Numbered from the stretch's first letter, positions 5,415-27,674 are shown. The stretch: 51,411 nucleotides of DNA from a plasmid (NZ_CP066773.1), one strand, 5' to 3'. Program-made: numbers and translations. Notes: generated from the letters alone by a model not told the origin.

Positions 5415-5580
5415 ATCATCACCTCATTTGAGTTGAGTAACAGAGTTAAGTATAAGAGTAACGCATCACTTTATCAACTCATTTGAGTTGATGAGTTGCG
5501 CCGATGCGTCACTCTTTTGAGTTAAGTTTTTAAGTGCCTCAACCACATTGATGCGCTGAGTTGAGTTTTTACGCGGAGCT
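5415..5580. promoter_or_regulatory. parA upstream region densely packed with TTGAGT(T/A) repeats in both orientations. Probable centromere (parC/parS-like) plus autoregulated promoter.
   Basis: tttgagttgagtaac, agagttaagtat, atttgagttgatgagttg, cttttgagttaagttttt, ctgagttgagttttt. Additional copies sit at 4730-4760 and 4838-4860. Confidence 0.55.
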
Positions 5581-6232
5581 AGTCCTGGCCATCGTCCTGC
5601 GCGCACACGGCCATGGCGCCATGCTTGGGGCAGAGGGGCGCCCCGACGAGATCTAGCCACTTCCGAGAAGTCCGGGCCGTGTAGCCGCAGCTGCCGCACT
5701 TGCACTTGATGTGCCGCCGCGTCTGTTTCTTCGGCGCCGTCGTCTTGATCCCTGGCGCCTCGCCATCGTCCGAGCTATCTGCGTCTGGCCTGGTCCGCAA
5801 GCGCGCATGCGGCAGTGGCCCGGCGTCGTCCAGGATTGGCGTGACGCTTTCCTCAAAGCGCGGGCCGGCCGTCGTTGATCGCATCGGACCCTTCAGGCCA
5901 ATCCCGACCGCAACATCCCGAAAGGGCTTGCGGTGGCCAGCATCGAGGCCGACCGCGGCGTGCACGAGCTCGTGCGCAAGGATCGCGGCGACTTGCATGG
6001 GCATCAGGTCGGCCGACTCCACCAGGTCAGGCCGGATGAAGATCTCGAAGTGTGCATCTTCGCTGCAGCTGGTGTCCCAGCACTCGCCAATCCGCTTACC
6101 GCGCTGGCCTGTCGACGTGAATCCGATGGCGATCCGAATCCGACCAGGCAGCGGGGCATCGAGCGCTGCGAACATTGGCGCCATGCGGCGCGCAACATGG
6201 TTCAACCAGGCTTCACGATTGGCATGGCGCAT
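5579..6232 (-). CDS. SprT-like zinc metallopeptidase with a C-terminal Cys4 zinc ribbon. Start placed at MRHANREAW (GGAAG Shine-Dalgarno). The ORF-track N-terminal extension to 6643 is probably spurious; an alternative start is at 6327.
   Basis: HELVHAAVGLDAGHRKPF (HExxH...H) followed by CKCGSCGY...CPKHG, typical of the SprT/Mig-14-like fold. Confidence 0.6.
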   Translation of the reverse strand: MRHANREAWLNHVARRMAPMFAALDAPLPGRIRIAIGFTSTGQRGKRIGECWDTSCSEDAHFEIFIRPDLVESADLMPMQVAAILAHELVHAAVGLDAGHRKPFRDVAVGIGLKGPMRSTTAGPRFEESVTPILDDAGPLPHARLRTRPDADSSDDGEAPGIKTTAPKKQTRRHIKCKCGSCGYTARTSRKWLDLVGAPLCPKHGAMAVCAQDDGQD

Positions 6233-6275
6233 CAGCTTCCCCCTCCCGATGGAATGTGTCGCCATTATCGCGATG

Positions 6276-6293
6276 AGTGCGTGTACACGCTCT
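6276..6293. promoter_or_regulatory. Palindromic operator GCGTGTACACGC (12-bp perfect core, 16/18 extended) upstream of the SprT-like gene. A GATAAT -10-like element lies just downstream on the minus strand.
   Basis: The same palindrome occurs as a perfect 18-mer at 9316-9333 upstream of another minus-strand operon. Confidence 0.5.
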
Positions 6294-6698
6294 ATATTTT
6301 TCACTCCGAGCGCTTTTTTGGACCACATCGACCCATCCAGGACACCCCGGAGGGTCAACCAGTCCGAAAAAAACGCTCTGAGCGCCCGTATACGCGTCCT
6401 AGAGCCCTCGCGGTGGCCAACCCGACCCTCTCTCTGCCAGCAACGTGCTTTGGATGAGCGGAAAGGTGTTTGCGCGCGCCGTCGCGCCCGGATTGAGGCG
6501 CCCGGGGACCCCCGCCGAAGGCGTGGGGAGAGCGCCGACCCGGCGTAGCCGGGGCAATCCGGCTCTGCGGTTGTGCTGGCGATCGGGGCAGTCAAGCGCG
6601 CTTGCGCGCGTGATAGCCCCGCGTGCGGGGCGTAGATGAACAACCCTCACGGGTGGGCGCGAAGCGCCCGGGTGGGGTTAAAGGCCGCGGTGAAGCGG

Positions 6699-8176: not shown

Positions 8177-8599
8177 CTAGCCGGATTGCTTCTCGCTGCT
8201 GGGACCGAACCTGACTCCGTTTTGCAATTCGGCCAGTTGCTGCGCCCGGCGTTCGAGCATCTTCTTTCCGACCTTCTCCATGACGGCAGGATCGGCGTCG
8301 CAGACGTCGATCATGGCGCTGACGATTTCCGGCAGATCGATGACCGGCCGGATGAAGGTGCACTCCTTCATCCGCCGCTTGGCGCGCAGGAAGCTGTCGT
8401 GAAAGATCAGCACCGCCTTGACCCCAGGCGTTTTCTCCTTGGCCTTGGGCACAATCTTGCGCACGCCAAACGCCTCCGATTCGTCGTCGGCCTCCCACTC
8501 AGCGCGAGTAAAGACGACGGTATCAGGCTCGGCCGCCCCATCGTGAATCGGGGGAAGTACAACGAGCGCGTCGTTGTCATGCGGCTTCTGATTGTCCAT
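8177..8599 (-). CDS. Hypothetical protein.
   Basis: 140-aa ORF overlapping the stop of 8577-9311 by 23 nt, operon-style. Confidence 0.4.
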   Translation of the reverse strand: MDNQKPHDNDALVVLPPIHDGAAEPDTVVFTRAEWEADDESEAFGVRKIVPKAKEKTPGVKAVLIFHDSFLRAKRRMKECTFIRPVIDLPEIVSAMIDVCDADPAVMEKVGKKMLERRAQQLAELQNGVRFGPSSEKQSG

Positions 8600-9311
8600 G
8601 CTTCATTTCCTCCTGGTCCTTGAACCAATCGATGACGGTGTAATCGTCGTCGGCGACACGCCGAACGTAGGGTAGGGCGGCCGGCAAGATGAGCGCGGCC
8701 GGATCTCGGCCGGCGCGCTCCCACTCCCTGGCGAGAGTAGCGACCAACTTGCCGACCTGGACGCGGGTTGCGCCAAAGCCTGGTGTCTTGAACAGCGATT
8801 GGATCACCGCCTGCACCTCTTGCTCCGCCCGCGGCGAGCGGGCGAGTTGCCGGACGGCAGCGCGCCAGGTGTCAAAGCGCTGGTTGGTCATCCGCCAAGT
8901 CAGGCGGACGCCGCCGCCATGATTCCGATCGCGTGGCAGCCGCAGGAGTTCGTAGTCGTCCACGCGGATGCGCGTGGACGACTCCAGCGCATCGCGTAGC
9001 GGCTCCATCTGCCTGGCCGGGTGGTCACCATCGGACACGAGCAAGAACCAGTGCAGGGTCCCGTTCTTGGCCAGGTCGGCAAGGATCAGCCGGGCATTGC
9101 CCTTGCCAAGCCGCTTGCGGTAGGCGCGTTGGTCGCGGTTCAGCGCGACCTCATAGCGTTCCGCGAACTTTTGGCAGAACGCCAATGCCTTCTCGGCCGG
9201 AACTTGTGCGGCCGTGTAATGGCAATAGCCATGCCGGACAGAATCCAACAGGCGTTGCATTAGGAGCGTCTTGTATCGGATGACCAAAAAAGTTGTCGGG
9301 CGCATGCACAA
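8577..9311 (-). CDS. Hypothetical protein. The true start may be MQRLLDSV at about 9260.
   Basis: 244-aa ORF with high GC3, preceded by the 18-bp palindromic operator at 9316-9333. Confidence 0.5.
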   Translation of the reverse strand: MCMRPTTFLVIRYKTLLMQRLLDSVRHGYCHYTAAQVPAEKALAFCQKFAERYEVALNRDQRAYRKRLGKGNARLILADLAKNGTLHWFLLVSDGDHPARQMEPLRDALESSTRIRVDDYELLRLPRDRNHGGGVRLTWRMTNQRFDTWRAAVRQLARSPRAEQEVQAVIQSLFKTPGFGATRVQVGKLVATLAREWERAGRDPAALILPAALPYVRRVADDDYTVIDWFKDQEEMKHGQSEAA

Positions 9312-9315
9312 AAAG

Positions 9316-9333
9316 AGAGCGTGTACACGCTCT
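9316..9333. promoter_or_regulatory. Perfect 18-bp palindrome AGAGCGTGTACACGCTCT. Second copy of the operator seen at 6276-6293.
   Basis: Sequence is exactly self-complementary. Confidence 0.55.
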
Positions 9334-9339
9334 TATCTA

Positions 9340-10620
9340 GCGATCCACCGGAACGGTCTGACGACCATTCCGGCGGATCGATTCCAACATAATAAAAATC
9401 CAACCCAGGCAAAGGAATCCAGTCAGTTGGAACGCACCGCGTTCCAACCTGATTATAAGAGATTCCGCGCGAAGCGCGTGCGGCCAACATATCACGCTAC
9501 AATGTGATTGCTGACCGCCACAAGCGGCCCACGCGCGCAAGCATCACCTGCGTTGCCGAGGCCGCCACAAGCGGCCAGCAACGCAGCACGAGGGCGACCA
9601 ACCCTTTGCAGTACGCAGTACAGGACCGGTCGCCCGAAGTGGTAATTGCGCGCGAGCGAAATTACACGGATTGGGGGCAGACCACCGCGACGTTTTGGGG
9701 GCTGACCATCCCCAAAATTCCACTCACTTCACACGAAGCTGTAAGGCTCTAGATGCGGGCTTACCACCTGCGTCGAGTACGCCGAAGTCGTATGCGCGTA
9801 ATGGCGCTGGTACGACTACGACGAGCGCTGGACGGTGTAACTCCGTCCTTCGACTCAATCCCCGGGAGGGGCGAGTTTGGGCGACACGGAAACGGGCTCA
9901 GCGAGGAAATGCGCTGAGTTCCTGTGTAGCGTGAAAGCGGTAGACGGTGGCTGTCTGCACCGTCGTTAGCACCGCCCAGGGGCTGCGGGAGACCGTAGAA
10001 CCTGTGCCACACACGTAGGCTGCTGAGGCGTTCCGAAAGGGCGCAGGCGTGCAAGGGGAAACCTGGCGCACGCGGCACCTACCGGCGCAAGCTGGTGGGG
10101 TCGCTGTATAGCTTAAGCGTGTAAATGCGGCCGAAGAGGTCGCTATGTGGTGGGGCATCAAGCCTGTCTGAAGACGAAGCTGTTGAAGGCACAACAGGTA
10201 AGCGAGCCGCTTTGGAATCTCGGGCCGCTGAAAACCTAATGGGTGAGAGGGAACACCTCACTGTTGTTGCTGGAGGCGCAGGCGTGAAGTCCTGGCGCGC
10301 AGTTTGGCGTCAGTAGCGTTGCACTAACGTGGGAATCGCTAAGGCCATAACCGGGCTGGTAACCCGGTGGCTATGCGAGGGAGAGTGGTTGAGTAGGGCC
10401 GCGTGGCGCAAGCCACGTAGCTGTTTGTCGCGATTCGTCTGAAGCGCAAACAGCAGGCGCAAGCCTGTCCGAAAGACTGCGGCGTACGCAAGTGTGAAGT
10501 TAGCGGGGTGGTTCCCGCGGTGGTTGTTGGAACGGGCGCGGCTGGTACCCGCGCCCGGACCGAATGGGTAATTCGGTGTCCTCCAACGTGTAATTGAACC
10601 CTTGAAAAAGGAGCTACGAA
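9340..10620 (+). ncRNA. Candidate large structured non-coding RNA or ribozyme remnant (hypothesis only). About 1.3 kb with no credible ORF and very dense hairpins. One hairpin at about 9776-9812 resembles group II intron domain V.
   Basis: No frame shows the GC3 bias seen in neighbouring genes. Hairpins: ttggaacgc/gcgttccaa, ctcagcg/cgctgag, gggcgcgg-ctggtac-ccgcgccc, ccggg-ctggtaa-cccgg, accgaat/attcggt, ggacgg/ccgtcc. The loop CTGGTA(a/c) recurs. agtcgtatgcgc-gtaatg-gcgc(tg)gtacgact has the 7-bp lower stem, 2-nt 3'-side bulge, 4-bp upper stem and CGTATGCG...GTACG sequence typical of domain V (GAGCCGTATGCG...GTACGGTTC). Confidence 0.3.
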
Positions 10621-10621
10621 G

Positions 10622-11011
10622 ATGGCAATTGCCAACACCCGGCCGGGCGGATACCCGGCATCGGCAACGGCACCGCCTAGCGGTGCCGGCGTCAGTCTGC
10701 AAGCCAGCGCAGTGAGCTGGAGTCAAACCGATAGCAGTTGGATCGGCAGGCAGTTCGGTCGCCCGTATGGGGCCGGTGGCAGCAAAAACGACAGTCCACC
10801 ATGGCTGTCTCGGCACGCTGATCGCGGTTGGATCAGCGGTCAAATCAGTCCCGCCGTATGGACTGATTGCAGTACAGCAGTGGGCGCCTCGGCGCCGAAA
10901 AGTCAACCCGGCAGCAATCAGGCCGGTGGGAATGGCAGCGATGTTTTCGCTGTCGGCAAACAGTGGTCCGGCGCTACCGCGTCGTGCTCGCTGTGGCAAT
11001 CCGGGCGTTGA
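10622..11011 (+). CDS. Questionable ORF: Gly/Ser/Trp-rich 129-aa protein with a strong Shine-Dalgarno (AAGGAG, 7 nt spacing) but weak GC3 bias.
   Basis: RBS gaaaaaggagctacgaagATG; 7 Trp in 129 aa; no TM segment or signal peptide. Confidence 0.25.
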   Translation: MAIANTRPGGYPASATAPPSGAGVSLQASAVSWSQTDSSWIGRQFGRPYGAGGSKNDSPPWLSRHADRGWISGQISPAVWTDCSTAVGASAPKSQPGSNQAGGNGSDVFAVGKQWSGATASCSLWQSGR

Positions 11012-11170
11012 CCTGGAGAGTCAGTTGTCAAACGGGCCACAAGCCCGCGTCAGGGTCGATGGTGTGGGAAACCATCGTCTTGCAGTACGGCCGTAGACCG
11101 TTATCTACCCGGTCCAGTGGTGATGCCCTATGGCGGATCTGCTGTGCTCTATTTGCAGTTGACTGGCCTA

Positions 11171-11199
11171 AACCAGAGGGGGATTTCCCCCTCTGGTTT
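11171..11199 (+). terminator. Hairpin aaccagaggggg-atttc-cccctctggtt just upstream of the coupling-protein gene. Terminator or attenuator-like.
   Basis: Perfect 12-bp inverted repeat followed by tcaccgttttct. Confidence 0.35.
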
Positions 11200-11229
11200 C
11201 ACCGTTTTCTAACAAGATGAGGTAGACGT

Positions 11230-12969
11230 ATGCTCGGACACCTTGGAATGCACGCATGGGTCGGCAAGGCAATCATGGCCCTGCTGGCGTGGTCGAGTCC
11301 GTGGTATTGGGTCGTGCTCGCCGTGGCGTTGGCCACGGTCGGACTGCTGCATCCCGTGCCGTGGACATTGAAGGACGACGAGGACTCATTCGTCGCTCAT
11401 CTTGTGTTGTGGGTCCGCAAAGCGGCGGCATACACCGCGCTTTGGGGCATCTTGGCGATACCGTTGTTGGTGTATTGCAGCTTCGTTCTCTCGGCTGACA
11501 CGTCTTCTGGGCAAGCGTCTAGCGTGTTCCTGGAGTGGGGCGCTGATCGTCTGGGCCGCTACTGGATGATGGTCGCGGGAGCGTTCGTGGTTGGCCTGGC
11601 GCTGCGTTTCCTGTGGGACCGCTACGCTGTTCCAGTGCTTTCAAAGTATTGGCGATCGCTTCGCATCGAGCAGGAGACTGACAAGTTGGTCGATGCACGG
11701 GAGGAAGTCGCCACGCTCAAGGCGAAGGAGTTCAAGCCGGAAGATTACTTTGTCGACGGCAAAATCTTCTACGGCTTGGACGATGATGGCCAGCCGATTT
11801 ACTTCGATTTGGACAGGTTCCGCACGACGCACCACGCCATCCTCGGCCCGACGAACTATGGCAAGGGCATCGTGCTGCAGAGCATCTTCAAGCAGTGCAT
11901 CCGGTTTGGTTTCGGCATTTTTTACGTCGATCCGAAGGGCGACAACTGGCTGCCCTACCTGCTGCAGAACGAAGCGAAGGCGGCCGGCCGCCGCTTCGTC
12001 TATCTCGATTTGAATCCGGAAGGGCGTGGCGTTTGGCATCCGTTCCTGGGCGGCGCATTCCGCCAACGACGCACGCGCATCGTGCGCGCGTTCAACCTGG
12101 AATCTTTCGGCACGGACGCCGATGTGCACAAGGCGAAGGAGCGCGGGCTGCTCGATGACGCGCTCGAAGGCACTGACGGCACGATCAAATCGCTGTTGGA
12201 ATACGTGAAAAAGAACGCCGAAACAGGGCGCGACAACCTGTCGACCTTGCGCGATTCCTTGCGTGAATGGTCGCGTGTCGACACGTTCTCACAGTCCGTG
12301 AAGCGCAAAGGCCATTCGATCGAACAGTGCCTGATGAACAACGCGATTGTGTATGTGCGTGGTGACCTGGCCGACCCGGTGATTAAGGCCGCGACCAAGG
12401 CATACATATCGGAGCTGGTGACGGAAATTAAGCGGCTCGATGCAACGCGGCCGGCGCACGTTGTGCTCGGCATTGACGAGCTGAAGTTCCTGGCCTGCGC
12501 GGAAATCAATGAGGCGCTGGCCACGATCCGACAGCACCAGTGCAACATGCTGCTGGCCGCGCAGTCGATTGCGAACCTGGAAGCACCGGACGACAAGCGG
12601 CTCGATGGTAAGGCGCTGGCACGGGAATTCGAGGTCAACACGCCGATCAAGTTCGTTTACCGCGCTGCTGACGAGCGCACTGCCGAGTGGGCGGAAAACC
12701 TGTCGGCGGGGCAATGGCTCAATGTGGTGCAACGCGAGCAGACGAAGGCGAACAAACACGGGGGCGAGCAGTGGGAAGCGAATCGGACGGTTGGCAAGGA
12801 GGAACAGCCGGTCGTTTCGCGCAACACGTTGCTGAATCTGCCTGAGCGCATCGCCATTGCTTACATGCCAGGCCGGATTGCTTCCAAGCTGTACACCTGC
12901 CACACGCAAATTGACAACAGTGTCGCATCGTGGAAAAAGCCGGAGGAAGACACGACGATGGCGGCATAG
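11230..12969 (+). CDS. traG: Type IV coupling protein (VirD4/TraG/TraD family).
   Basis: Three N-terminal TM helices. Walker A HAILGPTNYGKG (compare VirD4 APTRSGKG). Walker B VVLGIDELKFL. 579 aa. Confidence 0.7.
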   Translation: MLGHLGMHAWVGKAIMALLAWSSPWYWVVLAVALATVGLLHPVPWTLKDDEDSFVAHLVLWVRKAAAYTALWGILAIPLLVYCSFVLSADTSSGQASSVFLEWGADRLGRYWMMVAGAFVVGLALRFLWDRYAVPVLSKYWRSLRIEQETDKLVDAREEVATLKAKEFKPEDYFVDGKIFYGLDDDGQPIYFDLDRFRTTHHAILGPTNYGKGIVLQSIFKQCIRFGFGIFYVDPKGDNWLPYLLQNEAKAAGRRFVYLDLNPEGRGVWHPFLGGAFRQRRTRIVRAFNLESFGTDADVHKAKERGLLDDALEGTDGTIKSLLEYVKKNAETGRDNLSTLRDSLREWSRVDTFSQSVKRKGHSIEQCLMNNAIVYVRGDLADPVIKAATKAYISELVTEIKRLDATRPAHVVLGIDELKFLACAEINEALATIRQHQCNMLLAAQSIANLEAPDDKRLDGKALAREFEVNTPIKFVYRAADERTAEWAENLSAGQWLNVVQREQTKANKHGGEQWEANRTVGKEEQPVVSRNTLLNLPERIAIAYMPGRIASKLYTCHTQIDNSVASWKKPEEDTTMAA

Positions 12970-13442: not shown

Positions 13443-14246
13443 TCACCGCCTCCGCTCGGCCGCGAGCGCGGCCGGGTAGTGCTTGGCCAAGATGAGATTG
13501 AGCTTGTCCACCAGATCGGGCCGCTTGAACGTGGCATGCCCGTTCCCGTTCTTGAACCAGCGCAAATGCAGATAGGCGTTTTCGGCTTCTCTGCGCCTTT
13601 CGTGCCGCGCGCCGGAAATCAGCGCGTGCATGCCGTTCCTGTGGTCCGCTTCGGGCTGGCCGTCGAGCACGTGGAAGACGCGCATCAGATCGTCCAGTTC
13701 GTTCGTCGCGCGGCTGCCTGCATAGCCGCCTGTCATCAGGCCCGTCACGATGACCCGCTTGCCGAACTTGAATGGCTGATTGGTTTTGTAGTCCCAAGAA
13801 AGTCGGCGGAAGCATTGCAGGACGCCGCGCTCGAACATGTCGCCGCGCGCCTCGTAGAGTTGACCGAACGTCGCCTCGATGTTGGCGGCGGTCAGTTCAG
13901 GCACCTCGCCCTCGGCAATCTGTTTTGCCCACGTATCGCGGGCCGTGGCATCCATCAAGGTGCGCAGCCCGGACTCCTGAAGCAGGTAATTCCAGCCCTC
14001 GGCGTCGATGGTGTGCAGGATGCAGGTTTCCGCCTCGTCACGCTTCGCGTAGTCGCCCGTCACGCACACGGTGCCGCGCCTCGAATAGCTGTTGTCAATG
14101 ACGAGGCGCGGAAAGCCGATATGCGCGCCGCTGGCCAGCTTCTGGGCCTCGCCCAGCAGGTCCAGCGCTTGGCGCACACGTTCCACCACTGCCGCGCGCT
14201 GGCTCGCCAGATTGGCGATGCTGACGCTCTTTACCAAGTCGCTCAT
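13443..14246 (-). CDS. Hypothetical protein (conserved ICE backbone-like). Start placed at MSDLVKSV.
   Basis: 268 aa with high GC3; no recognisable motif. Confidence 0.45.
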   Translation of the reverse strand: MSDLVKSVSIANLASQRAAVVERVRQALDLLGEAQKLASGAHIGFPRLVIDNSYSRRGTVCVTGDYAKRDEAETCILHTIDAEGWNYLLQESGLRTLMDATARDTWAKQIAEGEVPELTAANIEATFGQLYEARGDMFERGVLQCFRRLSWDYKTNQPFKFGKRVIVTGLMTGGYAGSRATNELDDLMRVFHVLDGQPEADHRNGMHALISGARHERRREAENAYLHLRWFKNGNGHATFKRPDLVDKLNLILAKHYPAALAAERRR

Positions 14247-14257
14247 GATGGGTCTCG

Positions 14258-14482
14258 CTAGATCGTGGCTGCGGTCTTGTAGTCGGGATGAAAAATGCCG
14301 ACGCTGTACGCGAGCGAATCGCGCGCACGGCACACAGCCTGGTCATGGTTGCCGCGCGCCATCAGGTCGCGCGCATCGAGCAGGCACAGTGCGGCGCTGC
14401 TTTGCATGGCCGCCGTCGTGGTTTCCAGGTTTCGCGCGGCGAGGTTGATTGCGCGGGTAGCATCGTCTTGGGACTTGAGCAT
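14258..14482 (-). CDS. Hypothetical small protein (start MLKSQDD).
   Basis: 75-aa ORF in operon orientation. Confidence 0.35.
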   Translation of the reverse strand: MLKSQDDATRAINLAARNLETTTAAMQSSAALCLLDARDLMARGNHDQAVCRARDSLAYSVGIFHPDYKTAATI

Positions 14483-14545
14483 GGTGTTTCCCTGCGGTGA
14501 TGGGGCAGATGACAGCCCCGGCACGCTGGCCGGGGCCAGAGACGT

Positions 14546-14779
14546 TCAGCATTGCCAGTTCGCGCGCAAGCCGCGCCAGTCTCGGGCCACAAAGCCCGTG
14601 GCCGACTCCAGCGCGGCGGCCACGGCTTCGGCGCGTTGGTCCGTCGAGTGGCGGCGGATCGCTGCGGCAAACTCGGGCAAGGTCAGCCGGGAACCCCAGC
14701 GCACGAGGTAGCCGCATGCTGTGATGGCGTGGCGGATCAGTTCGTTTTTGTCGGACTTGGCTGCGGTGGTCTTGGTCAT
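14546..14779 (-). CDS. Hypothetical small protein.
   Basis: 77-aa ORF in operon orientation. Confidence 0.35.
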   Translation of the reverse strand: MTKTTAAKSDKNELIRHAITACGYLVRWGSRLTLPEFAAAIRRHSTDQRAEAVAAALESATGFVARDWRGLRANWQC

Positions 14780-14876
14780 GATTGGTCTTCAATAGATTGT
14801 GGCTTGCGTGGTCCGAGCCCTCGGCTCGGACCACCTTTGTCGGGTTGCCCGCGCGAGCGGGCGGGGCCGTCTTTTT

Positions 14877-16748
14877 CTAAGGCGTAGCGCTGGCTTGCAG
14901 GACGGAGGGCAGCCAGCGCTTGCCCGCGAGCGCGCGCGCGGCGGCCTCCACCATTTGCCCCTTCTTCATCGCGGCGAGCGGTGCCGCCTCGGCGGCACCG
15001 ACGCCTTCCGTGACTGCGGCCAGCACTTGTGCCTTGGGCACGTGCGACAAGTAGCTCTCGGTGGTGGCTTCCCACCAGTCGGCCATGTCGAGCGCGACGG
15101 ATTGCGCGATCACATCGGTTTCGTGCTCGCCCGCGCGCGGCTGGATGCCGTTCACTGTCACGGCAGTGCAGAAGGCCAGCAGCGACAGCAGTTCGTCGCG
15201 CGGCATCGCCAGAAGCACCGGCCACAGCGCATCGAGTTCTTCCGGCAGGCGGGTCTTCCAAGCTTCGCTTGCGGCCTCGATCTGCTGCCACGCGCGCGAG
15301 GTTTCGATGCTGGCATCAGCCTGTGTGACGGTGTAGCGCATGTCGGTGGTGCGCACGCCGACCGCGTTGGCACGCCAATAGCGTTCCGACCACAGCGACG
15401 AAACCAGCCCATAAGCGAGCGTGGCGAGCGCAACATCGGTGCGCTCGATCAGCACCGCCTGCAGGGCCGTGGTGCGTTGTGCGGTCAGGGCGCGGGTGAG
15501 CTTTTCTGAAAGGGTGGGTGCGGGTGCAGCGTCGGTGCCGTCACCGTCACCGGATGCGGCGCGCGTGGCGGCGCGCTCGATCTTGGCAGCGGCCTTGCGG
15601 TCTTCCGGCTTGATCGCGCCGCGCAGAATCTTGACGGTGTTGTGCTGGAAGAGAACGACAACGCCCGCAAGACTCTTGTCGGCCACGACCTGCATCTGGT
15701 CGCTCAGGTCGCTCAATTCGCTTTCGATCTTGTCCCACTCGTCAGACAGCGCCGCATACGCCTCGGATTCTTCCTCGCCTCGTTCCTCCATGCTGCCCAT
15801 GTCGCGCTCGATCTTGGCTTTGCGGGTATCCAGCTTCTTGATCGCGGCGGCTTCCTTCTTGGTCGGTTCGCGCAGGGTTGTCGGAGCGTGGCCGAAAGCG
15901 TCCATATCGCTGTAGCTCGGATTCAGCAGCGCCAGCGCCCATGCCCAGCCCTCGGCGGTGCGGATCGCCTCGGCCTCTGCGCCCATCTTGCCCAGCGCCA
16001 TATCCCGCACGAGCGCACCGTCAAGCCAGTAGGCAGCGGACTGGAACAAGTCCACCTGCATGCGCCCACCCGCAGCGAGATAGGCATCCTTGCCGACATA
16101 GGCGGCGAGGGGGCTGTCCGAGCGCACGGTGTCCTGTCCGAGCAGCGCGCGGCGCAGCTTTTCCGGCGTGCGCTCATGGTGAGGCTGAAACTTCCACACC
16201 TGTTCTTGCGCCGCGTGATCGTCCGTGACGGTCATAGCCATCAGTTGTTCAAGCGACATATCGTCAGCGCGATAGGCGGCGATCAGCGCGGGCGACACCT
16301 TGGCCAGCTTCAGGCGCCGCTCCACGACAGCGGGCGTGACGCCGTAGCGCGCTGCCACGTCCTCGATGCTGGTGCCGGCGTCCACCATCCTGCGGAAGGC
16401 TTCATATTCGTCGGCGGGGTGCATGTCTTCGCGCTCGATGTTCTCCGCCGTGGACAGTTCCAGTGCCTCCGCTTCGCTCTCCGCCAGCAGGCACAGCACT
16501 TCATGATCGGCATCGATCGCGCCTTGATCGCGCAGCAGTTCCAGAGCGGCGCGGCGCCGACGCCCTGCGGCGACGGGATAGCAGGTCTTGCGGCCCTTTT
16601 TGACTTCGGTGACGACCAGCGGGTGCATGAGGCCATGCACGCGGATAGTCGCGGCAAGCGCCGGGATGTTCGGCAGTTCGCCGGTGCGCACGTTGGCGTC
16701 GGAATCGACAAGGCAGGACAGGGGGACGGTAATCAGGTTGCGTTGCAT
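14877..16748 (-). CDS. Large ParB-like nuclease-domain protein (ParB/KorB N-terminal domain plus a long C-terminal extension).
   Basis: N-terminus VPLSCLVDSDANVRTGE...HGLMHPLVVTEV...GRRRRAALELL...LAESEAEALELSTAENIERED matches ParBc box motifs. 623 aa. Confidence 0.75.
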   Translation of the reverse strand: MQRNLITVPLSCLVDSDANVRTGELPNIPALAATIRVHGLMHPLVVTEVKKGRKTCYPVAAGRRRRAALELLRDQGAIDADHEVLCLLAESEAEALELSTAENIEREDMHPADEYEAFRRMVDAGTSIEDVAARYGVTPAVVERRLKLAKVSPALIAAYRADDMSLEQLMAMTVTDDHAAQEQVWKFQPHHERTPEKLRRALLGQDTVRSDSPLAAYVGKDAYLAAGGRMQVDLFQSAAYWLDGALVRDMALGKMGAEAEAIRTAEGWAWALALLNPSYSDMDAFGHAPTTLREPTKKEAAAIKKLDTRKAKIERDMGSMEERGEEESEAYAALSDEWDKIESELSDLSDQMQVVADKSLAGVVVLFQHNTVKILRGAIKPEDRKAAAKIERAATRAASGDGDGTDAAPAPTLSEKLTRALTAQRTTALQAVLIERTDVALATLAYGLVSSLWSERYWRANAVGVRTTDMRYTVTQADASIETSRAWQQIEAASEAWKTRLPEELDALWPVLLAMPRDELLSLLAFCTAVTVNGIQPRAGEHETDVIAQSVALDMADWWEATTESYLSHVPKAQVLAAVTEGVGAAEAAPLAAMKKGQMVEAAARALAGKRWLPSVLQASATP

Positions 16749-16813
16749 GATGGGTATCCAATGAGAGAAGAGGGAAAGCGGCCAGCGCCCGCCCGGGCGC
16801 TGGCCGCGATGGG

Positions 16814-17641
16814 CTAGGCCTTGAGCTTGCGCATTTCCTCAGCGAGCACCCACAGGGCGCGATTGAGCTTGACGCCCTGGTCAATGCCGTTCACGGCGCG
16901 CGTGGTGGTGCGCTTGCCGGTCGCATTGCGACCGCGCACACCGCCCTTGATGATGTTTTCTTGCACGCGGTTGAACGTGGTCCACAGGTCGGGCGCGCGA
17001 TCATCCATGCGGCGGACGCTCAGCAGGTCGGTATCGGTGATGGGAGCGGGTGCCACGGTTTCGTCGTAGCGCAGGGCGAGCGCGGCACGCGCGAAAGCCT
17101 GCTGCTCGCCGCCGTTGAGCGTGAGCGCCTTCATGCCGTCGCGCTGCGTGTCCACAGCCTCGAACGTATCGAGCACGGTGAATGCGCCCTCGATGACTTG
17201 ATCGATCACGTTGCCCTTGTGCGGGATACGGATGTCCGCGAAGTCGTCGCCAACCACCAAGCCGTTAGAGCAGATGAAGCGATGAACACCGGCCCGCATC
17301 TGGTAGGCGCTCGATCCATCGTGGCTGTTGAGCAGGACGATTTCGTTTACCTCTTGCCCCACGTCGACCACGTGGTCGACATGGCGCAGGCGCAACAGGT
17401 GTTTGGTGTGCTCGCGCTTGCCATCGTCGCGCACGCGGGTCTGCATTGCCATGTACGGCTGAAAACCTTCCTTGCGCAGGCCGTTCAGCACGTCGATGGT
17501 GGGAATGTAGGTATACCGATCGGAGCGGCTTTCGTGCTTGCCGTCCGCGAAGATGGAGGGCGCAACGCGGCGGATGTCGTCATCGGCCAGCGGGGTCTTG
17601 GAGCGCACGACGTTGGCATTGCGCAGCGACAGGTAAGACAT
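16814..17641 (-). CDS. DUF932-family protein (phage/plasmid-like, common ICE backbone gene).
   Basis: N-terminal LADDDIRRVAPSIFADGKHESRSDRYTYIPTIDVLNGLRKEGFQPYMAMQ matches the DUF932/TIGR03299-type signature. 275 aa. Confidence 0.55.
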   Translation of the reverse strand: MSYLSLRNANVVRSKTPLADDDIRRVAPSIFADGKHESRSDRYTYIPTIDVLNGLRKEGFQPYMAMQTRVRDDGKREHTKHLLRLRHVDHVVDVGQEVNEIVLLNSHDGSSAYQMRAGVHRFICSNGLVVGDDFADIRIPHKGNVIDQVIEGAFTVLDTFEAVDTQRDGMKALTLNGGEQQAFARAALALRYDETVAPAPITDTDLLSVRRMDDRAPDLWTTFNRVQENIIKGGVRGRNATGKRTTTRAVNGIDQGVKLNRALWVLAEEMRKLKA

Positions 17642-21352: not shown

Positions 21353-21601
21353 CTAGATTTCGAGCTTGATGCCGCGTGTTTCGGCCCATGCGGCAAACGC
21401 CTTGTCGCGGCGCAGGTGCTGACGCAGGATGTATTCGCCGATGTCATCCATGGATAGTTCGGCTTCGTTCATCTCCCGATAGGCATCCTGGTAATGCAGC
21501 AGCGCGGCATGCAAGCCCGCTGGAATAGTCAACTTGAGCGTGGCGTGCTGCGGAACCGGCTTGGCGACGGGCAGCATGAGGCGAGCTTTCTTTTCAGTCA
21601 T
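21353..21601 (-). CDS. Hypothetical small protein (possibly DUF2274-like, a family often found downstream of trbI in Tn4371-type elements).
   Basis: 82 aa; position and size only. Confidence 0.4.
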   Translation of the reverse strand: MTEKKARLMLPVAKPVPQHATLKLTIPAGLHAALLHYQDAYREMNEAELSMDDIGEYILRQHLRRDKAFAAWAETRGIKLEI

Positions 21602-22851
21602 GGTTTTGCGTTGAGGGTGGGTGAGTTGGGCACGTTGACGGCGCGCAGAAGCGGAACGCCGGCAATGCGTGCAATAGAAGAAATGCTTTGACGCTGAATC
21701 TCGCCAACGGCCAGGCCGTCGTCAAACCAGTTGTTGGCAAGGCCGAGCAGCACATCCGGGCGAACCAGGAACAGGCGCCAGTGCGGCCAGAACAGGAAGT
21801 CTTCGTAGCAGATGGAAAACGCCGCACGGTGGCCATCGATGGTGAGGAAGTCTTGGCTAAGGTCACCTAGAACGGCGCTCAGGGGCGCCATGGGCCGCCA
21901 CAGGCCTGCCGGCACCGGCTGGCGGCTGTCGAATCGGCCATCGCCAGCGCCGAGCACGATGGCGCTGTCAGCGTAGCGGCGGGGTGATTCCGAAACGAGC
22001 AGGTCAACACCCATGACGAGTGTTTGCCTTGAGTCCTTGAGTTGAGTAAGTGAGCTATCCCACCAGAACTGCGTAGAGTCCCGCCACAGACCGGTCATTT
22101 CTTCCGGCAAGACGACCACGCGCGCGCCGGCGTCGAACGCCTTGCGTGCGGCGAGCTGCAACGCTTCGGAGCGCGCATAGAGGGCTGCATAGCTGGCCTG
22201 GTCGAGCTGGCCCATTGCCGTATTGACCGCGACCCAGCCCGCCGGCGGCCGTGGAAGCGCCTCGGATGAGGCCACAGGAGCAACCAGGAGCACCAACGCA
22301 GCGCCGAGCGCGGCGGGCCGACGCACAGGGAACAGCCACAAGGGATAGCACGCCAGCCCGGCTAAAACGAGAACGGCATACACCAGGCTGTAGATGCCGG
22401 CACCCGGGAGCAAGACGCTGGCGACATGCAACGGCGAGACCCAGCCGACGATGCCGATGGGTGGCACGGTCGATACCAGCAGCGCCAACGCCGCGCGCCA
22501 CCAGAGGCCGCGTTGACGCGATGCCGGCGCCGGCTTGAGCACCATCCATGGCATTGCAAGCACGCAGGCCTGGGCGATCCAGAACGCGACGCCGACGGCG
22601 AGTGCCGGCGTCGCACCCAGTTCGCCGTGGACCGAGAAAAACCGGGCGCATACGACCGGGATGTCACGAGCGGCCACCAGGTAGTAGCCGGCCCACATCG
22701 TGCCCGCTGCAACTCGGCCCGGGCTTGCCGCCCAGAGCACCGGCAGCGCAAGCAGCACGATCACCCAGTTGCCGGGATACCAGGCGGCGAACGCGATGCC
22801 AGCACCGGCCGCGGCGTAGGCGAGAGCTGAGAGCAACGTTTTGGCCTGCAT
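21598..22851 (-). CDS. Apolipoprotein N-acyltransferase (Lnt)-like membrane protein: 6-7 N-terminal TM helices plus a C-terminal CN-hydrolase-like domain.
   Basis: ARVVVLPEEMTG (compare Lnt catalytic Glu in vvWPE) and AAFSICYEDFLFWP (compare the Lnt catalytic Cys in the ICYE motif). Multi-pass hydrophobic N-terminus. Confidence 0.55.
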   Translation of the reverse strand: MQAKTLLSALAYAAAGAGIAFAAWYPGNWVIVLLALPVLWAASPGRVAAGTMWAGYYLVAARDIPVVCARFFSVHGELGATPALAVGVAFWIAQACVLAMPWMVLKPAPASRQRGLWWRAALALLVSTVPPIGIVGWVSPLHVASVLLPGAGIYSLVYAVLVLAGLACYPLWLFPVRRPAALGAALVLLVAPVASSEALPRPPAGWVAVNTAMGQLDQASYAALYARSEALQLAARKAFDAGARVVVLPEEMTGLWRDSTQFWWDSSLTQLKDSRQTLVMGVDLLVSESPRRYADSAIVLGAGDGRFDSRQPVPAGLWRPMAPLSAVLGDLSQDFLTIDGHRAAFSICYEDFLFWPHWRLFLVRPDVLLGLANNWFDDGLAVGEIQRQSISSIARIAGVPLLRAVNVPNSPTLNAKP

Positions 22852-22857
22852 GCTGGC

Positions 22858-23277
22858 TTACTGGTCTTGTGACGCCGCTGCGCCCGTGGTCTTGACCGGC
22901 GCGGCAGCGCCGCGCAACACCACCTGTGGCACACCATCCACGTACCACCTCGTTGCCCGAGCTTCCTGGTTGCCCGCGCGGAAGATCAGCACATTGGCCT
23001 GATAGCTGATGACGATGTATGGATAGCTGCGGCGCCAGCTGAGAAGTGCGGTGCCGTTGGGCGTCTCAGTGAGGATGGCGGGCACGTGCGCCGGATCATC
23101 GAATTGAACGTAGATGTACTGGCCATCGTCGAAGACCTGGAACGGTTTCACCATGTCGGCGCCGCTGGTGGTCCAGCCGAAGTTGTACGCATTCGGAGCC
23201 GCGAATGCGCTGGCGGGCAGAACGGCGGCGAGCATCAGCGCGCAAATGAAGCGAACAAAGGATTTCATTGGTAGCAC
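22858..23277 (-). CDS. Secreted/periplasmic hypothetical protein (Sec signal peptide MKSFVRFICALMLAAVLPASAFA).
   Basis: 139 aa; overlaps the trbI stop by 13 nt. Confidence 0.5.
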   Translation of the reverse strand: MLPMKSFVRFICALMLAAVLPASAFAAPNAYNFGWTTSGADMVKPFQVFDDGQYIYVQFDDPAHVPAILTETPNGTALLSWRRSYPYIVISYQANVLIFRAGNQEARATRWYVDGVPQVVLRGAAAPVKTTGAAASQDQ

Positions 23278-24611
23278 TCCCCAGCAACGGTATTAGGTGG
23301 AATTCGGATAGGCGCTTTGGTGATGAAAACAAGCTTCTGGCCAGGATCGAGCCGCAATGTCGGCTGGATGTTGGAGTTGCGCTGCAGGATCGTCTGCGTG
23401 GTCTGCGAAACCGCCTGTCCAGCAGCGGAGGTCAAGCCGGTGGCACCGCCGCCGCCATTGATATTGAGCGTCGTGCCGGTTGGCTGGCTTTGATTGCGGC
23501 CGATGTATTGAGCGATGCCGGCAATCAGGAACGTGGAGCCGAAAATCTTGAAGAAGTGATTGTTGACGTCGGCTGACACGCCGGCTTCACCGTTCGGATC
23601 GGCTCCGTTCAACCCATCGAGCACCATCGATGCGCCGTTACGGAAGATCATGAGCGCGGCGCCCATCTGCATACGCTCCTGTCCGATCGCTACGTCGCTA
23701 TTGCTCGCCCCGACGATCCGAGTGCCTTTTGCGATCAATCGGCATGAGCCATTGATGCTGTCGTAGATGTCCCGGTCGACGGTCGCGCTGTACTGCCCGG
23801 GCATGTCGCTGTTGACGCCTTGGTTGAGCACAACCGGGATGGGCGTGCCGGGCATAACCATGAACGGCGATTCGGCGGCTTGCGGGGTCAACGTTGCGCT
23901 CTGGCCTTGGTTCGTCTGCTGTCCCTGCCACGCGACGTGACGCGCGTTCGTTGCGGAACCGGGCGTGTTCTGGCTCTGGCTGTTGGCCGCCGCAAGCGCG
24001 GCGAGCTGCGCTTGAATGGCAGGTGTCCCAGCTTCACCAGGCGCGGTACGTTTGTCGGCCTGTTGACGCTGCAGCGACGCGATGTAATCGGAAATCGGAT
24101 TGGTGCCGGCACTGGCTGCAGCGCCTTGCTCGCGATCGCCATAGGACACCACCGCCATGGTGTCGGTCTCCTGGGAGGCTCGCTGCAGCGCAAGACGCTG
24201 CTCCGGGGTCAGCCCTTCCTGGGAACCAGGCGCACCCGCCGGCACGCCGGCCGGCGCGGATGCGCCGCCTACCATGCCGTTCGGCACAGGGCCGGATGGC
24301 GGCGTCTTCGGCGCCGCCGGCGCCGCGGGTGCCGGATGCTCCGTTTGTGCGCGCGTGAATTGATTCTCCAGCTTCTGAGCAAGCGCATCTCCCGAAGCCG
24401 GCTGTTCCTTCGCCAGTTGTTCGAGCTGTTCGCGCCGTGCCCGTTGGTCGGCCGTTTCACGCGGGTGCGTGAAATAGCGCACAAACACGATCGACAGAAT
24501 CGTGGCACCGAAGAAAATGGAGATCGTCTTGGCCAGCCCCCGTCGCACACGAACGCGCGGGGCAGGCTCATTGGTCATGGGGGCCGCATTGCGGTCAGGC
24601 GTGGCCATCAA
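23265..24611 (-). CDS. trbI: TrbI/VirB10-like T4SS protein.
   Basis: N-terminal TM, Pro-rich linker, and a C-terminal VirB10 domain (...NGASMVLDGLNGADPNGEAGVSADVNNHFFKIFGSTFLIAGIAQ). 448 aa. Confidence 0.8.
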   Translation of the reverse strand: MMATPDRNAAPMTNEPAPRVRVRRGLAKTISIFFGATILSIVFVRYFTHPRETADQRARREQLEQLAKEQPASGDALAQKLENQFTRAQTEHPAPAAPAAPKTPPSGPVPNGMVGGASAPAGVPAGAPGSQEGLTPEQRLALQRASQETDTMAVVSYGDREQGAAASAGTNPISDYIASLQRQQADKRTAPGEAGTPAIQAQLAALAAANSQSQNTPGSATNARHVAWQGQQTNQGQSATLTPQAAESPFMVMPGTPIPVVLNQGVNSDMPGQYSATVDRDIYDSINGSCRLIAKGTRIVGASNSDVAIGQERMQMGAALMIFRNGASMVLDGLNGADPNGEAGVSADVNNHFFKIFGSTFLIAGIAQYIGRNQSQPTGTTLNINGGGGATGLTSAAGQAVSQTTQTILQRNSNIQPTLRLDPGQKLVFITKAPIRIPPNTVAGECYQ

Positions 24612-25561
24612 GCGCCCCCATCGATGTTCTTCACAGGCTTCGTATCGCAGCTGAAGAAACCACAGCCTGACCCCTTGCCATTGAAGATCCGCACCTCGTC
24701 CTTGCCTCGCTTGAGCAGCGCGCCGTACGTGACAACCTCCTGGATCTGGTACATGTCGTTGCCGAGCGGAATCACGCGCGCCATTTCACCCTGGCCATCC
24801 TTGTCCAGGATGAACACGGCCGACAGCTTGGCGTCGTGCGGCAGTTGGTAATACGTCATGCGGCCATCGTCGAACACCATCACCGGCTTGAACTCGGCGT
24901 TGCCCTCGATGCGGTAGTTCGTGTTCATGCGCGTCGCGTCGATGCGCGGGCTCCCCGTTTTCGAGCCTCCCGCTTCTGGGCGACCTGGTACACCAGGCGT
25001 AGCCGGAATTTCGAAACCGAATACGGTCGGACTTGCGCCGACACCATCGCCCAACGTGTCTGTGTATTGCCAACTCACACGTTGATATGCCGGGCCGTCG
25101 TCACCCGAGCACAGTTGAAGCTCGTAGCGTCGTTTCGACGTGATGATCGTCGCGGCCGCGCGCTGTCCAGCTGCAGCCGGCACGATGAAGAGGTCGCGCT
25201 TGGTGACCGATGGCATCGTTGGCCAGAGCTTCTTGTTTCGGTCGCCGAGTGTGAACGACACCAACGTCTCGTCGTCACCCAGCACCAGGTGCGTCTGCTG
25301 ATTGGGCCGCATCGGAATCGGATATGTGTAATCCGCGTCGTAGGCGTAGGTCGCAAGCGTCGGGTCTTGCTGCTCAGCAAAGGGGCCGAAAGCAGAAGAC
25401 TTGGCGCAGGGCGACGCCGCGCGAGCTGCCGGCGCAACCTTCGACATGCGGCCGAACTCGCCCTGGGGGCGAGGAGCGGCTGCAGGGACATCGGCATAGA
25501 CCGATGCGGCATGCGTTGCCATCGCAGCAATGATGAGAATGGCGCGAGGTAGCGTCTTCAT
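24608..25561 (-). CDS. trbG: TrbG/VirB9-like T4SS protein.
   Basis: Signal peptide and VirB9/CagX domain motifs (RYELQL, YQRVSWQY); stop/start overlaps with neighbours. Confidence 0.8.
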   Translation of the reverse strand: MKTLPRAILIIAAMATHAASVYADVPAAAPRPQGEFGRMSKVAPAARAASPCAKSSAFGPFAEQQDPTLATYAYDADYTYPIPMRPNQQTHLVLGDDETLVSFTLGDRNKKLWPTMPSVTKRDLFIVPAAAGQRAAATIITSKRRYELQLCSGDDGPAYQRVSWQYTDTLGDGVGASPTVFGFEIPATPGVPGRPEAGGSKTGSPRIDATRMNTNYRIEGNAEFKPVMVFDDGRMTYYQLPHDAKLSAVFILDKDGQGEMARVIPLGNDMYQIQEVVTYGALLKRGKDEVRIFNGKGSGCGFFSCDTKPVKNIDGGA

Positions 25562-26286
25562 TTCGTCGATCCTGGGGTAATGCCGGTGTACGGAGTAATG
25601 GACAGGCCCGTGATGCGCATGCCGATCGGGTTGTCCTTCCTGTCTTCCGGCTTGAGTTGTTGCGGCGCGGTGAGGAAGTTGATGGTGAGCAGCTTCTGCT
25701 TGGGCGTCTGGCGAACGCCGGCAATGCTCTCGGTCAGAGTGACGATCATGTAGGCGATGTTGCCGTCGGCCGAGAACGATATGGAGTTGTCTTCGAACTG
25801 ACGGGTCAGCCCGGGCGTGTTGACGACGCGCTGGGCCACCGGATCGGTTTCAGTGATGTAGGTGTCGAGCTCCTTGGTTGCGGCACCGGAGGTCCACGTG
25901 CGTGCAAGCGGGATCTGTCGCTTCAGGGTGTCTTGCGCATCCAGGTTGATCGTGAATACGCGGGTAGCCCACTTGCGCAGGAAATAGGCGTTGTTGTCGG
26001 CGGTCGGGGTGAACGCCTCGGCGTATTTCTCGCTGTAGTAGACGGCACCGCTTTGCTTGTCGCGTTCGACGAAATAGGGCTTCGGGCCAGAGTTATCGCT
26101 AATTCTGACGATCGCGACGGTCTGCCCGATGGAGATAGCCGCGAACACAATGGCGACTTTCGTTGCCAGGTGCTTGTCGAGAATTGGTTTCTGAAACGCA
26201 GCAAACCATCCACGGACGCCCTGGCCAGTTCCGGGCGGCGGAGTAATTTGCATTTCAGGGGTGGATCTGGAGGAGAAAAGTTTCAT
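25558..26286 (-). CDS. trbF: TrbF/VirB8-like T4SS protein.
   Basis: Single N-terminal TM plus periplasmic NTF2-like domain; position between trbL and trbG. Confidence 0.7.
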   Translation of the reverse strand: MKLFSSRSTPEMQITPPPGTGQGVRGWFAAFQKPILDKHLATKVAIVFAAISIGQTVAIVRISDNSGPKPYFVERDKQSGAVYYSEKYAEAFTPTADNNAYFLRKWATRVFTINLDAQDTLKRQIPLARTWTSGAATKELDTYITETDPVAQRVVNTPGLTRQFEDNSISFSADGNIAYMIVTLTESIAGVRQTPKQKLLTINFLTAPQQLKPEDRKDNPIGMRITGLSITPYTGITPGSTK

Positions 26287-27302: not shown

Positions 27303-27306
27303 AGCG

Positions 27307-27639
27307 TTAATCCAGGACTCCGGTTGCGTAGAGGGTTCCCATCACCAGCGCGGCCGGCACGGCGACGATGGCGGCGGCCAGGATCTGAGGCGATTCCGCT
27401 TGCACAACGAGAATGGCGTAGACCATCGACAGGCGCGCTGAGCGGCGCACACGCGCGTCCTTGACGCGGTGGCGAGGCTGCAGCGCGCCACGTTGAAACA
27501 GATTGGAGAAACGCAACGGTGGCGTCCGCTCCTGGGCGGTCGCGTGCTGCGCTGCCAGGTACGCGCGCACGACGCGGATCACGCACCGCAATTCGGCACG
27601 TGATCGACAGAGTTGGAGGATGAGCCACCGTATCAGCAT
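27307..27639 (-). CDS. Small protein with a C-terminal TM helix, in the trbK (entry-exclusion) position between trbJ and trbL. Start MLIRWLILQ.
   Basis: 111 aa, GC3 about 80%. The ORF-track extension to 28068 overlaps trbJ in another frame and is spurious. Confidence 0.4.
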   Translation of the reverse strand: MLIRWLILQLCRSRAELRCVIRVVRAYLAAQHATAQERTPPLRFSNLFQRGALQPRHRVKDARVRRSARLSMVYAILVVQAESPQILAAAIVAVPAALVMGTLYATGVLD

Positions 27640-27674
27640 GGTGAAGTCGTGTTCTTTATGAGAGTCAGAAGGGG

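Follow-up and report, generated by a model that had tools for sequence, protein, structure and literature searches.

The question raised by the Ralstonia plasmid NZ_CP066773.1 (~50 kb) is what occupies the 1.9 kb at positions 9340-11229 of the window, as the whole stretch of DNA analysed (51,411 nucleotides) is called here. The segment is flanked by a minus-strand open reading frame (ORF) with its end at 9305-9311 and by the gene of a type IV coupling protein (T4CP) starting at 11230, and the queried stretch is 99.7% identical to the R. insidiosa plasmid NZ_CP012607. A first-pass annotation, made from the sequence alone, had described the segment as non-coding and dense in hairpins, one of them resembling domain 5 (D5) of a group II intron. 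The best explanation, to which we assign a probability of about 95%, is that the plus strand at 9721-10483, and by conservation to ~10615, encodes a circularly permuted (CP) group II ribozyme, with its published partner gene acpG lying divergently just upstream. The CP group II ribozymes were described by Roth, Weinberg, Vanderschuren, Murdock and Breaker (2021, iScience; PMC8637638). The RNA, its structure, its in vitro reaction and its partner gene were all published in that year, this exact sequence included, and the identification is a rediscovery. The identity with a published member, the fit to the published structure, the covariation and the link to AcpG are established here.

The GC content by codon phase is flat over 9340-11229 (0.58/0.61/0.61), whereas the neighbouring genes have 0.41-0.45 at the second (GC2) and 0.76-0.81 at the third (GC3) codon position. 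The segment has no coding signature, as first annotated. Its two longest ORFs, 10622-11011 on the plus strand and 10310-10999 on the minus strand, had no match in Pfam or NCBIfam. The density of hairpins was borne out by folding, since 9721-10615 has a folding energy of -410.6 kcal/mol with z = -4.9 against 20 shuffles. No feature is annotated over the RNA in RefSeq or PLSDB. Searches with Rfam 15, at gathering thresholds for the whole window and in E-value mode for 9200-11300, gave chance matches only, and the Intron_gpII and group-II-D1D4 models did not match 9200-11300 even at E = 10. This result indicates that no Rfam 15 model fits this RNA; it does not indicate the absence of an RNA. The first-pass annotation had counted a lack of Rfam matches, together with a lack of covariation, against its own proposal. 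The former came true, and covariation across homologues is present. A missing Rfam hit makes a poor criterion, since this RNA is published and still fits no model of Rfam 15.

In a sensitive blastn search of plasmids, those of Paraburkholderia and Pandoraea matched the whole stretch at ~81% conservation. A core at 9781-10236, from the D5 hairpin on, matches plasmids of E. coli (3 kb and 30 kb), Halomonas, Azotobacter and Thiothrix at 65-76%, and in every case the match in these distant groups sits in an unannotated gap of 1.2-2.3 kb. The presence of a hairpin with a bulged A, resembling domain 6 (D6), after the D5-like hairpin pointed to the CP group II ribozymes. In the machine-readable alignment taken from the supplement of the published work (Data S2, Roth et al., 2021, PMC8637638), the row of the R. 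pickettii 12D plasmid (NC_012851.1) is identical to 9721-10483 (+) at 763 of 763 positions. When the published consensus structure (SS_cons) was projected onto the window, both residues were present for 211 pairs, 203 of which are standard. The gene layout agrees as well: the context table of PMC8637638 lists, for the Ralstonia copies, Rep_3, two reverse hypotheticals, the RNA and then a VirB4/TrwB_AAD_bind protein, and the window has the same order. GOLLD, ROOL, HEARO, OLE and raiA-type RNAs, RNase P, retron and defence-associated reverse transcriptase (DRT) non-coding RNAs and single-strand promoters were also considered, and were dropped on the match to the published alignment. The domains of the RNA follow one another as P1-P2-D5-D6-linker-D1-D2-D3, with the following positions.

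9721-10483 (+): CP group II ribozyme as published (P1, P2, D5, D6, linker, D1, D2, D3), from the 763/763 identity, the structure projection and covariation
9721-9745 (+): P1, specific to the permuted class, from projection of the published structure
9746-9782 (+): P2, specific to the permuted class, with a hairpin at 9752-9774 and the loop CUUACCA at 9760-9766
9787-9816 (+): D5, the catalytic hairpin, with the triad AGU at 9786-9788, a UG bulge at 9808-9809 and the loop GUAAUG at 9798-9803
9823-9856 (+): D6, with the bulged branch-point adenosine A9853
9857-9859 (+): 3' splice motif AAU, the NU motif of the family
9860-9878 (+): linker between the 3' and 5' splice sites, 19 nt (CCCCGGGAGGGGCGAGUUU) that are predicted to be excised as a circle; 9861-9870 forms a small hairpin
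9879-9883 (+): 5' splice motif GGGCG, 19 nt after the 3' splice site
9885-10331 (+): D1, from the structure projection
10336-10378 (+): D2, with the loop CUGGUAA
10379-10384 (+): J2/3, purine-rich GGGAGA, from the structure projection
10385-10480 (+): D3, from the structure projection

The names D2, J2/3 and D3 were assigned by the order described in PMC8637638. The proposal of a group II intron lacking an intron-encoded protein, or of a ribozyme derived from one, is supported by the published identity; the circular permutation had been missed, however, and D5 lies near the start of the RNA and not near its end. The D5-like hairpin is a real group II D5, although it occupies 9787-9816 and not 9776-9812 as first placed. 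It consists of a 7-bp lower stem, the UG bulge on the 3' strand and a 4-bp upper stem, and conforms to the D5 of the published CP class, in which an AGC-type triad and five pairs are followed by a two-base 'UN' bulge (PMC8637638). None of the 11 pairs is lost in any of seven distant homologues (100% paired), and five show compensatory change; an invariant U-G pair identifies the plus strand as the folded one. The triad had been read as AGT in place of AGC. This is correct: AGU is a compensated lineage variant, with U-A here and C-G in E. coli, Azotobacter, Thiothrix and Halomonas. The Ralstonia/Paraburkholderia lineage has AGU where most relatives have AGC, and a G-to-A change on the other strand compensates for it (9786-9788 with 9815-9816); among the loci readable by a simple pattern, the triad is AGT in 11 and AGC in 24.

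D6 has 11 pairs, 100% paired and five of them compensated, including a change from A-U to G-C beside the bulge. A9853 is unpaired within an invariant CGAC, 6 nt before the last intron base U9859. In the published family, the NU and GGGCG splice motifs are excluded from the circle, whose length ranges from 15 to 86 nt (Roth et al., 2021, PMC8637638), and our estimate over 63 loci is 13-54 nt. The GTGCG pentamer noted earlier near 9478 is present at 9478-9482, but it lies outside the ribozyme and is no splice site, the family motif being GGGCG at 9879-9883. Within D1, several helices (8, 10, 12, 13, 15 and 16) are 95-100% paired with compensatory changes. The D1 loop GCUUUGGAAUCUCGG (10209-10222), invariant in 7 distant sequences, is probably the loop that bears exon-binding site 1 (EBS1). 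The P2 loop UUACCA (9761-9766) is complementary to the D2 loop UGGUAA (10357-10362), and a P2-D2 pseudoknot is a published feature of the CP class (PMC8637638). Loops reading CTGGTA(A/C) had been remarked on in the first-pass annotation and are found at 10356-10362, the D2 loop, and at 10543-10549, in a hairpin 3' of the published row; the pseudoknot accounts for one of them. The RNA contains no ORF for an intron-encoded protein, with phase GC flat over 9721-10483.

Covariation was assessed in an alignment of our own, separate from the published one and made of seven sequences from Ralstonia, Paraburkholderia, Thiothrix, Azotobacter, Halomonas and E. coli. Invariant blocks alternate with helices that carry compensatory changes, and U-G pairs in these helices indicate that the plus strand is the folded one. 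In this alignment 88% of the cells pair, compared with 40-45% when the partners are slid; 39 of the 101 pairs changed on both sides, and none of 500 shuffles reached the observed values.

The divergent ORF at 8580-9305 (-) is acpG, and residues 7-202 of its product are identical to AcpG rows of the published protein alignment (PMC8637638). The association was followed over 73 RNA loci, namely the window, six loci on plasmids and those that nhmmer confirmed in a one-genome-per-species scan for the invariant 18-mer GGGCGACACGGAAACGGG. The scan gave 115 genome matches, of which ~49 were unconfirmed by nhmmer and are chance, very divergent or truncated copies; nhmmer links the RNA of the window to the 72 other loci. 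An AcpG homologue is present at 56 of the 73 loci, and at 49 of those 56 it is upstream and divergent, usually 100-500 nt from D5. The AcpG family comprises 1045 cluster representatives (50% identity, E up to 0.001).

The published work (PMC8637638) reported that AcpG lacks detectable homology with known classes of protein, and in the later literature on the CP class nothing was found that changes this or the lack of a reported cellular role. No match was obtained for AcpG in Pfam, NCBIfam, PADLOC, PHROGs or the PDB sequences. No reverse transcriptase (RT; Pfam RVT) or maturase match was found for 39 AcpG members at E up to 10, and ten longer relatives carry no fused Pfam domain. The best structural matches of two AcpG models are group II RT/maturases, e.g. 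PDB 7uim_D and 6me0_C, with 166-181 residues aligned at 6-8% identity; the G2L4, DRT9, diversity-generating retroelement (DGR), DRT2, retron and AbiA reverse transcriptases and Prp8 are lower in the list. A Foldseek search against the PDB gave no usable match, and the likeness of AcpG to RTs is therefore a grey-zone fold match and not proof. The invariant residues of AcpG are W86, R112, E119, W137, M139, P175 and Q183. Its beta-hairpin turns carry GGG or variable residues and have neither a conserved aspartate pair nor YxDD, so that AcpG is probably not a polymerase. The group II RT/maturases and Prp8, its best structural matches, resemble AcpG in being encoded beside or inside a group II-type RNA. 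AcpG differs from them in its size (~240 aa compared with ~400-600 aa), in the absence of profile-level similarity and in the position of its gene outside the RNA on the opposite strand, and its association with the RNA is putative. On these models, AcpG would be related to the RT/maturase of group II introns but catalytically dead, and would act as the protein cofactor of the RNA.

Five members of the class, from five species, process themselves in vitro, giving a branched RNA and a small circle that consists of the linker, and expression in the host has been shown for one member (PMC8637638); cryo-EM structures have been reported for the Comamonas (C. testosteroni) member. By analogy with the tested members, the RNA of the window would fold around D5 (9787-9816) and then undergo back-splicing. 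In the first step, the 2'-OH of the bulged A9853 in D6 would attack the 5' splice site before G9879. In the second, the freed 3'-OH of U9878 would attack the 3' splice site after U9859. The 19-nt linker (9860-9878) would be released as a circle, and a 2'-5' branch would keep the P1-P2-D5-D6 piece attached at the 5' end of the D1-D3 piece with its downstream transcript. AcpG may take part as a maturase-like cofactor that is encoded beside the RNA and not inside it.

The RNA shares with canonical group II introns (IIA/IIB/IIC) the D5 triad and 2-nt bulge, a bulged branch A in D6 at 7 nt from the intron end, the D1-D3 scaffold, a purine-rich J2/3, recognition of the EBS-IBS type (exon- and intron-binding sites) and, according to the published work, two-step transesterification. 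In contrast to them, the order is D5-D6-D1-D2-D3(-D4), the splice sites are reversed and only 19 nt apart, D4 has no ORF, the 5' motif is GGGCG in place of GUGYG, and the triad G pairs with C and not U. The products of CP RNAs also differ, being a tiny circle and a branched linear RNA where canonical introns give ligated exons and a lariat, and mobility is not evident.

The ribozyme accounts for ~0.9 kb of the 1.9 kb that had been treated as one unit, the remainder being made up of the region between acpG and the RNA and of a second structured leader. The surroundings of the published row are as follows.

8580-9305 (-): acpG, divergent from the ribozyme and identical to the published AcpG rows
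9306-9720 (no strand): acpG-ribozyme intergenic region, with several hairpins and short direct repeats
10484-10615 (+): conserved 3' extension, unaligned in the published Ralstonia row, with a closing pairing at 10492-10499 and D4-like hairpins
10503-10518 and 10525-10589 (+): D4-like hairpins by RNAalifold, the latter with inner hairpins at 10534-10557 (loop CUGGUAC) and 10560-10577
~10605-10616 (+): hairpin CCUU/AAGG, pairing part of AAGGAG
10620-10880 (+): variable hairpin-module region, in which the number of modules varies between plasmids; overlaps ORF 10622-11011
10880-11200 (+): second conserved structured block of the Burkholderiaceae lineage, ending in a perfect 14-bp hairpin at 11170-11199
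11230-12969 (+): T4CP gene, 3' of the RNA on the same strand (Pfam TrwB_AAD_bind, 5e-8, and TraG-D_C; NCBIfam TraD subfamily, 4e-20)

No D4 is aligned in the published row, and the D4-like conserved hairpins come after it in the window. Across 11 Burkholderiaceae loci the conservation of the 3' extension is 0.8-0.94 up to ~10615, which is higher than that of the start of the T4CP gene. RNAalifold predicted 33 pairs in the extension, seven of them with compensatory change. The 5' and 3' parts are closed by a pairing of CUUCACAC (9727-9734) with GUGUGAAG (10492-10499), which shows compensatory changes in three sublineages. By conservation, the RNA reaches ~130 nt past the published Ralstonia row, to ~10615. 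Compared with the published CP ribozymes (PMC8637638), the sequence at 9721-10483, the gene context, the AcpG rows and all class-defining features are the same and the core shows no difference; what differs is this extra length, the AGU triad of the lineage and the additional Burkholderiaceae block.

In that block, at 10880-11200, RNAalifold predicted 89 pairs from 9 sequences, 23 of them compensated, and ~81 of the 801 cells are G-U. Since these would be A-C on the other strand, the plus strand is the folded one. The variation in the block has no codon-position periodicity, and an Rfam search of it gave no match. The terminal hairpin at 11170-11199 ends 30 nt before the T4CP start codon; it was considered as a terminator, which is not convincing, its U-tract being weak in Ralstonia, while the other sublineages have none. 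The block was found only in Burkholderiaceae plasmids.

In this lineage, the ribozyme and the structured leader at 10620-11200 may be part of the 5' leader of the T4CP mRNA, and the T4CP message would then have the branch as its 5' end, with a protective or regulatory effect. The working analogy is the lariat-capping (GIR1) ribozyme, which is derived from a self-splicing intron and provides the mRNA that follows it with a 2'-5' branched 5' end. GIR1 differs in being derived from a group I intron and in forming a 3-nt lariat in one step, whereas the CP RNA is derived from group II, and the co-transcription with the T4CP gene is a proposal. In favour of the leader are the presence of a T4CP gene downstream on the same strand at 14 of the 73 loci and the intervening plus-strand block with its 23 compensated pairs.

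Several observations weigh against this picture. The triad is AGU here and not AGC, and the activity of this copy is predicted from other members. Most of the ribozyme was deleted from the Thermus plasmid pTT8 with replication unaffected (PMC8637638), which indicates a process that the RNA does not serve there and not the one that it serves. Many RNA loci have no T4CP gene nearby, and the T4CP gene of the E. coli 30-kb plasmids follows acpG, on the strand opposite to the RNA; because of this different arrangement the leader idea is not general. A search of the acpG-ribozyme intergenic region for the sigma-70 consensus gave no match.

This intergenic region (9306-9720) presumably holds divergent promoters. 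It contains identical 15-mers CCGCCACAAGCGGCC at 9515 and 9562, repeats at 9666-9684/9690-9708 and 9382-9398/9442-9458, and a perfect hairpin at 9426-9448, and its conservation in Paraburkholderia begins at ~9418. On the minus strand, a 7-bp hairpin followed by a T-run is present at 9316-9333, just 5' of the acpG start codon in the would-be acpG 5' leader. The loop CACAA is common to three small hairpins. Two of them, 9515-9529 and 9562-9576, are the identical CCGCCACAAGCGGCC copies 5' of the ribozyme; the third, CGGGCCACAAGCCCG at 11023-11037 in the downstream block, covaries in relatives (AGGCCACAAGCCT). The three hairpins could be binding sites for one protein.

Among other explanations, the one that survives best concerns conjugation, and we regard it as unlikely. 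According to it, the RNA and AcpG form the DNA-processing module of a relaxase-less type of conjugation, or work with an origin of transfer (oriT), for which the flanking hairpin blocks are possible sites. The reverse reaction would nick or tag the transferred strand, AcpG would link the complex with the T4CP, and mobilisation in trans would extend to small plasmids that have the RNA. Roth et al. (PMC8637638) note that the reverse reaction could cut DNA. The RNA/AcpG locus adjoins the T4CP gene, the usual place of mobilization (MOB) modules, and T4CP domains rank second in frequency among the neighbours tabulated in PMC8637638; its main text was not found to mention either conjugation or type IV secretion. 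The 14 loci with a T4CP homologue downstream on the same strand include the window as well as Photobacterium and Endozoicomonas-like contigs, and at a fifteenth, E. coli L003, the T4CP gene is upstream on the opposite strand.

The plasmid contents are consistent with this explanation. The window encodes a full VirB-type type IV secretion system (T4SS) with VirB6/8/9/10/11-like proteins, a type IVb pilus set (PilO, secretin, two ATPases and a shufflon-type PilV) and the T4CP (e.g. 23265-33147, 37015-45757 and 11230-12969). Pfam recognised no relaxase family among thirty ORFs of the window, and the first reading had seen no relaxase-like fragment in the 1.9-kb segment; nic sites were not searched, no motif being known for this plasmid group. 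An 892-aa ORF at the VirB4 position has no Pfam match. ORFs of 300-420 aa without a family are found at 1585-2646, 21598-22851 and 46769-47671. All 23 PLSDB plasmids that carry the element are typed as non-mobilizable by MOB-suite. An unrelated E. coli plasmid of 34 kb has the same make-up and no annotated relaxase; its acpG and T4CP genes form a single divergent operon. Among E. coli plasmids, the RNA is present on 15 of 27-35 kb with a T4SS and on seven RepL plasmids of ~3 kb without acpG, at 96-97% identity, which is the pattern of helper and mobilisable plasmids. For example, a 719-nt RNA segment is 96% identical between the RepL plasmid L001 (3,064 bp, no acpG) and the T4SS plasmids L003 and L122 (30-34 kb, with acpG). 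The large and small E. coli plasmids also share a 150-aa hypothetical protein 3' of the RNA (74% DNA identity), which is confined to that lineage.

All evidence for conjugation is nevertheless circumstantial. Many of the RNA loci lie on chromosomes or lack T4SS genes within the 8-kb loci, and the large and small plasmids occur together in only one of the 21 E. coli carrier genomes. An unrecognised relaxase could hide in the ORFs at 1585-2646, 5579-6643 or 21598-22851, and the T4SS might transfer no DNA. In the wider form of the idea, a ribonucleoprotein (RNP) of ribozyme and AcpG, the latter taken for an inactive offshoot of the intron RT/maturase, is used by this T4SS plasmid family instead of a relaxase and oriT, either by processing or tagging the transferred DNA strand through the reverse reaction or by controlling the T4CP through the branched mRNA end, and RepL plasmids with the RNA alone are mobilised or served in trans. 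We consider this form equally doubtful.

A role in defence or plasmid competition is possible and is the weaker of these two alternatives, with a slim chance of being right. The locus would then be one of the systems that combine an RT-like protein with a large non-coding RNA, such as DRT2, DRT9 and retrons, and the branched ribozyme would cut invading RNA or DNA. However, three AcpG proteins gave no PADLOC match, neither AcpG beta-hairpin turn has a conserved aspartate pair, which makes a polymerase improbable, the best structural matches are group II maturases and not defence RTs, and no effector gene is consistently adjacent.

The two remaining explanations, decayed or live coding DNA and a conventional intron, are rejected because specific tests contradict them. 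The first, that the stretch is a relaxase pseudogene or contains a live small gene (ORF 10622-11011), is very improbable. This ORF, which overlaps the variable region, has a good AGGAG-N8-ATG at its start; three sublineages retain GGAG and the start codon, and LWQ(S/A)G recurs at the C-terminus. The region at 10620-10880 has a conservation of only 0-0.67 with indels and contains a 31-nt repeat at 10730 and 10820; the ORFs over it in relatives encode 70-250 aa, and their peptides are not conserved. The peptides can be aligned only in hairpins conserved at the nucleotide level, and the conserved stop is lost in two loci. The codon-position GC of the ORF is 0.58/0.70/0.62, and it shows no third-position excess (27/42, 20/42 and 23/43, compared with 24/33, 16/33 and 30/33 in the T4CP gene), so ORF 10622-11011 is probably non-coding. 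For the stretch as a whole, phase GC is flat, the two longest ORFs match no family and the conserved features are compensated hairpins; the decayed relaxase that had been offered as an alternative is not supported, with no relaxase family in the thirty ORFs.

A conventional, non-permuted group II intron without an ORF, or a ribozyme like the hydrolytic endonucleolytic ribozymes (HYER), in which D1-D4 would precede D5 and the GTGCG near 9478 would serve as 5' splice site, has next to no chance despite that pentamer and the canonical shape of the D5 and D6 hairpins, since it is refuted by the domain map (D1-D3 downstream of D6, splice motifs 19 nt apart inside the RNA), while distant homology starts at D5 and runs downstream, the part 5' of 9781 is conserved in close relatives only, and the Rfam intron models failed to match. 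HYER are ORF-less RNAs derived from group II introns, with normal domain order, that are proposed to cut nucleic acids in trans. The CP ribozyme likewise has no intron-encoded protein but is permuted, with a conserved branch site and both splice motifs.

Three genes 3' of the T4CP gene on the opposite strand (13443-17641) encode a DUF4942 protein, a 623-aa ParB-like protein and a DUF932 protein, a trio known from integrative and conjugative elements.

Three features were not met in the searched literature, namely the extent of the RNA to ~10615, the covarying block at 10880-11200 and the recurrence of the RNA/AcpG pair on T4SS plasmids without a recognisable relaxase and on small plasmids. The case of this plasmid indicates that a ribozyme overlooked by current annotation can be spotted by reading the bare sequence; it fits no model of Rfam 15 and has no feature in RefSeq or PLSDB. 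The leads on the function of the class are the likeness of AcpG to RT/maturases, the adjacency to the T4CP gene on T4SS plasmids in which no relaxase is recognised, and the near-identical RNAs on large and 3-kb E. coli plasmids. If AcpG is truly a truncated and inactive RT/maturase, the permuted introns would have moved their protein partner outside the RNA rather than losing it. If the ribozyme-AcpG complex does stand in for a relaxase, doubtful as this is, it would give the CP class its missing biological function.

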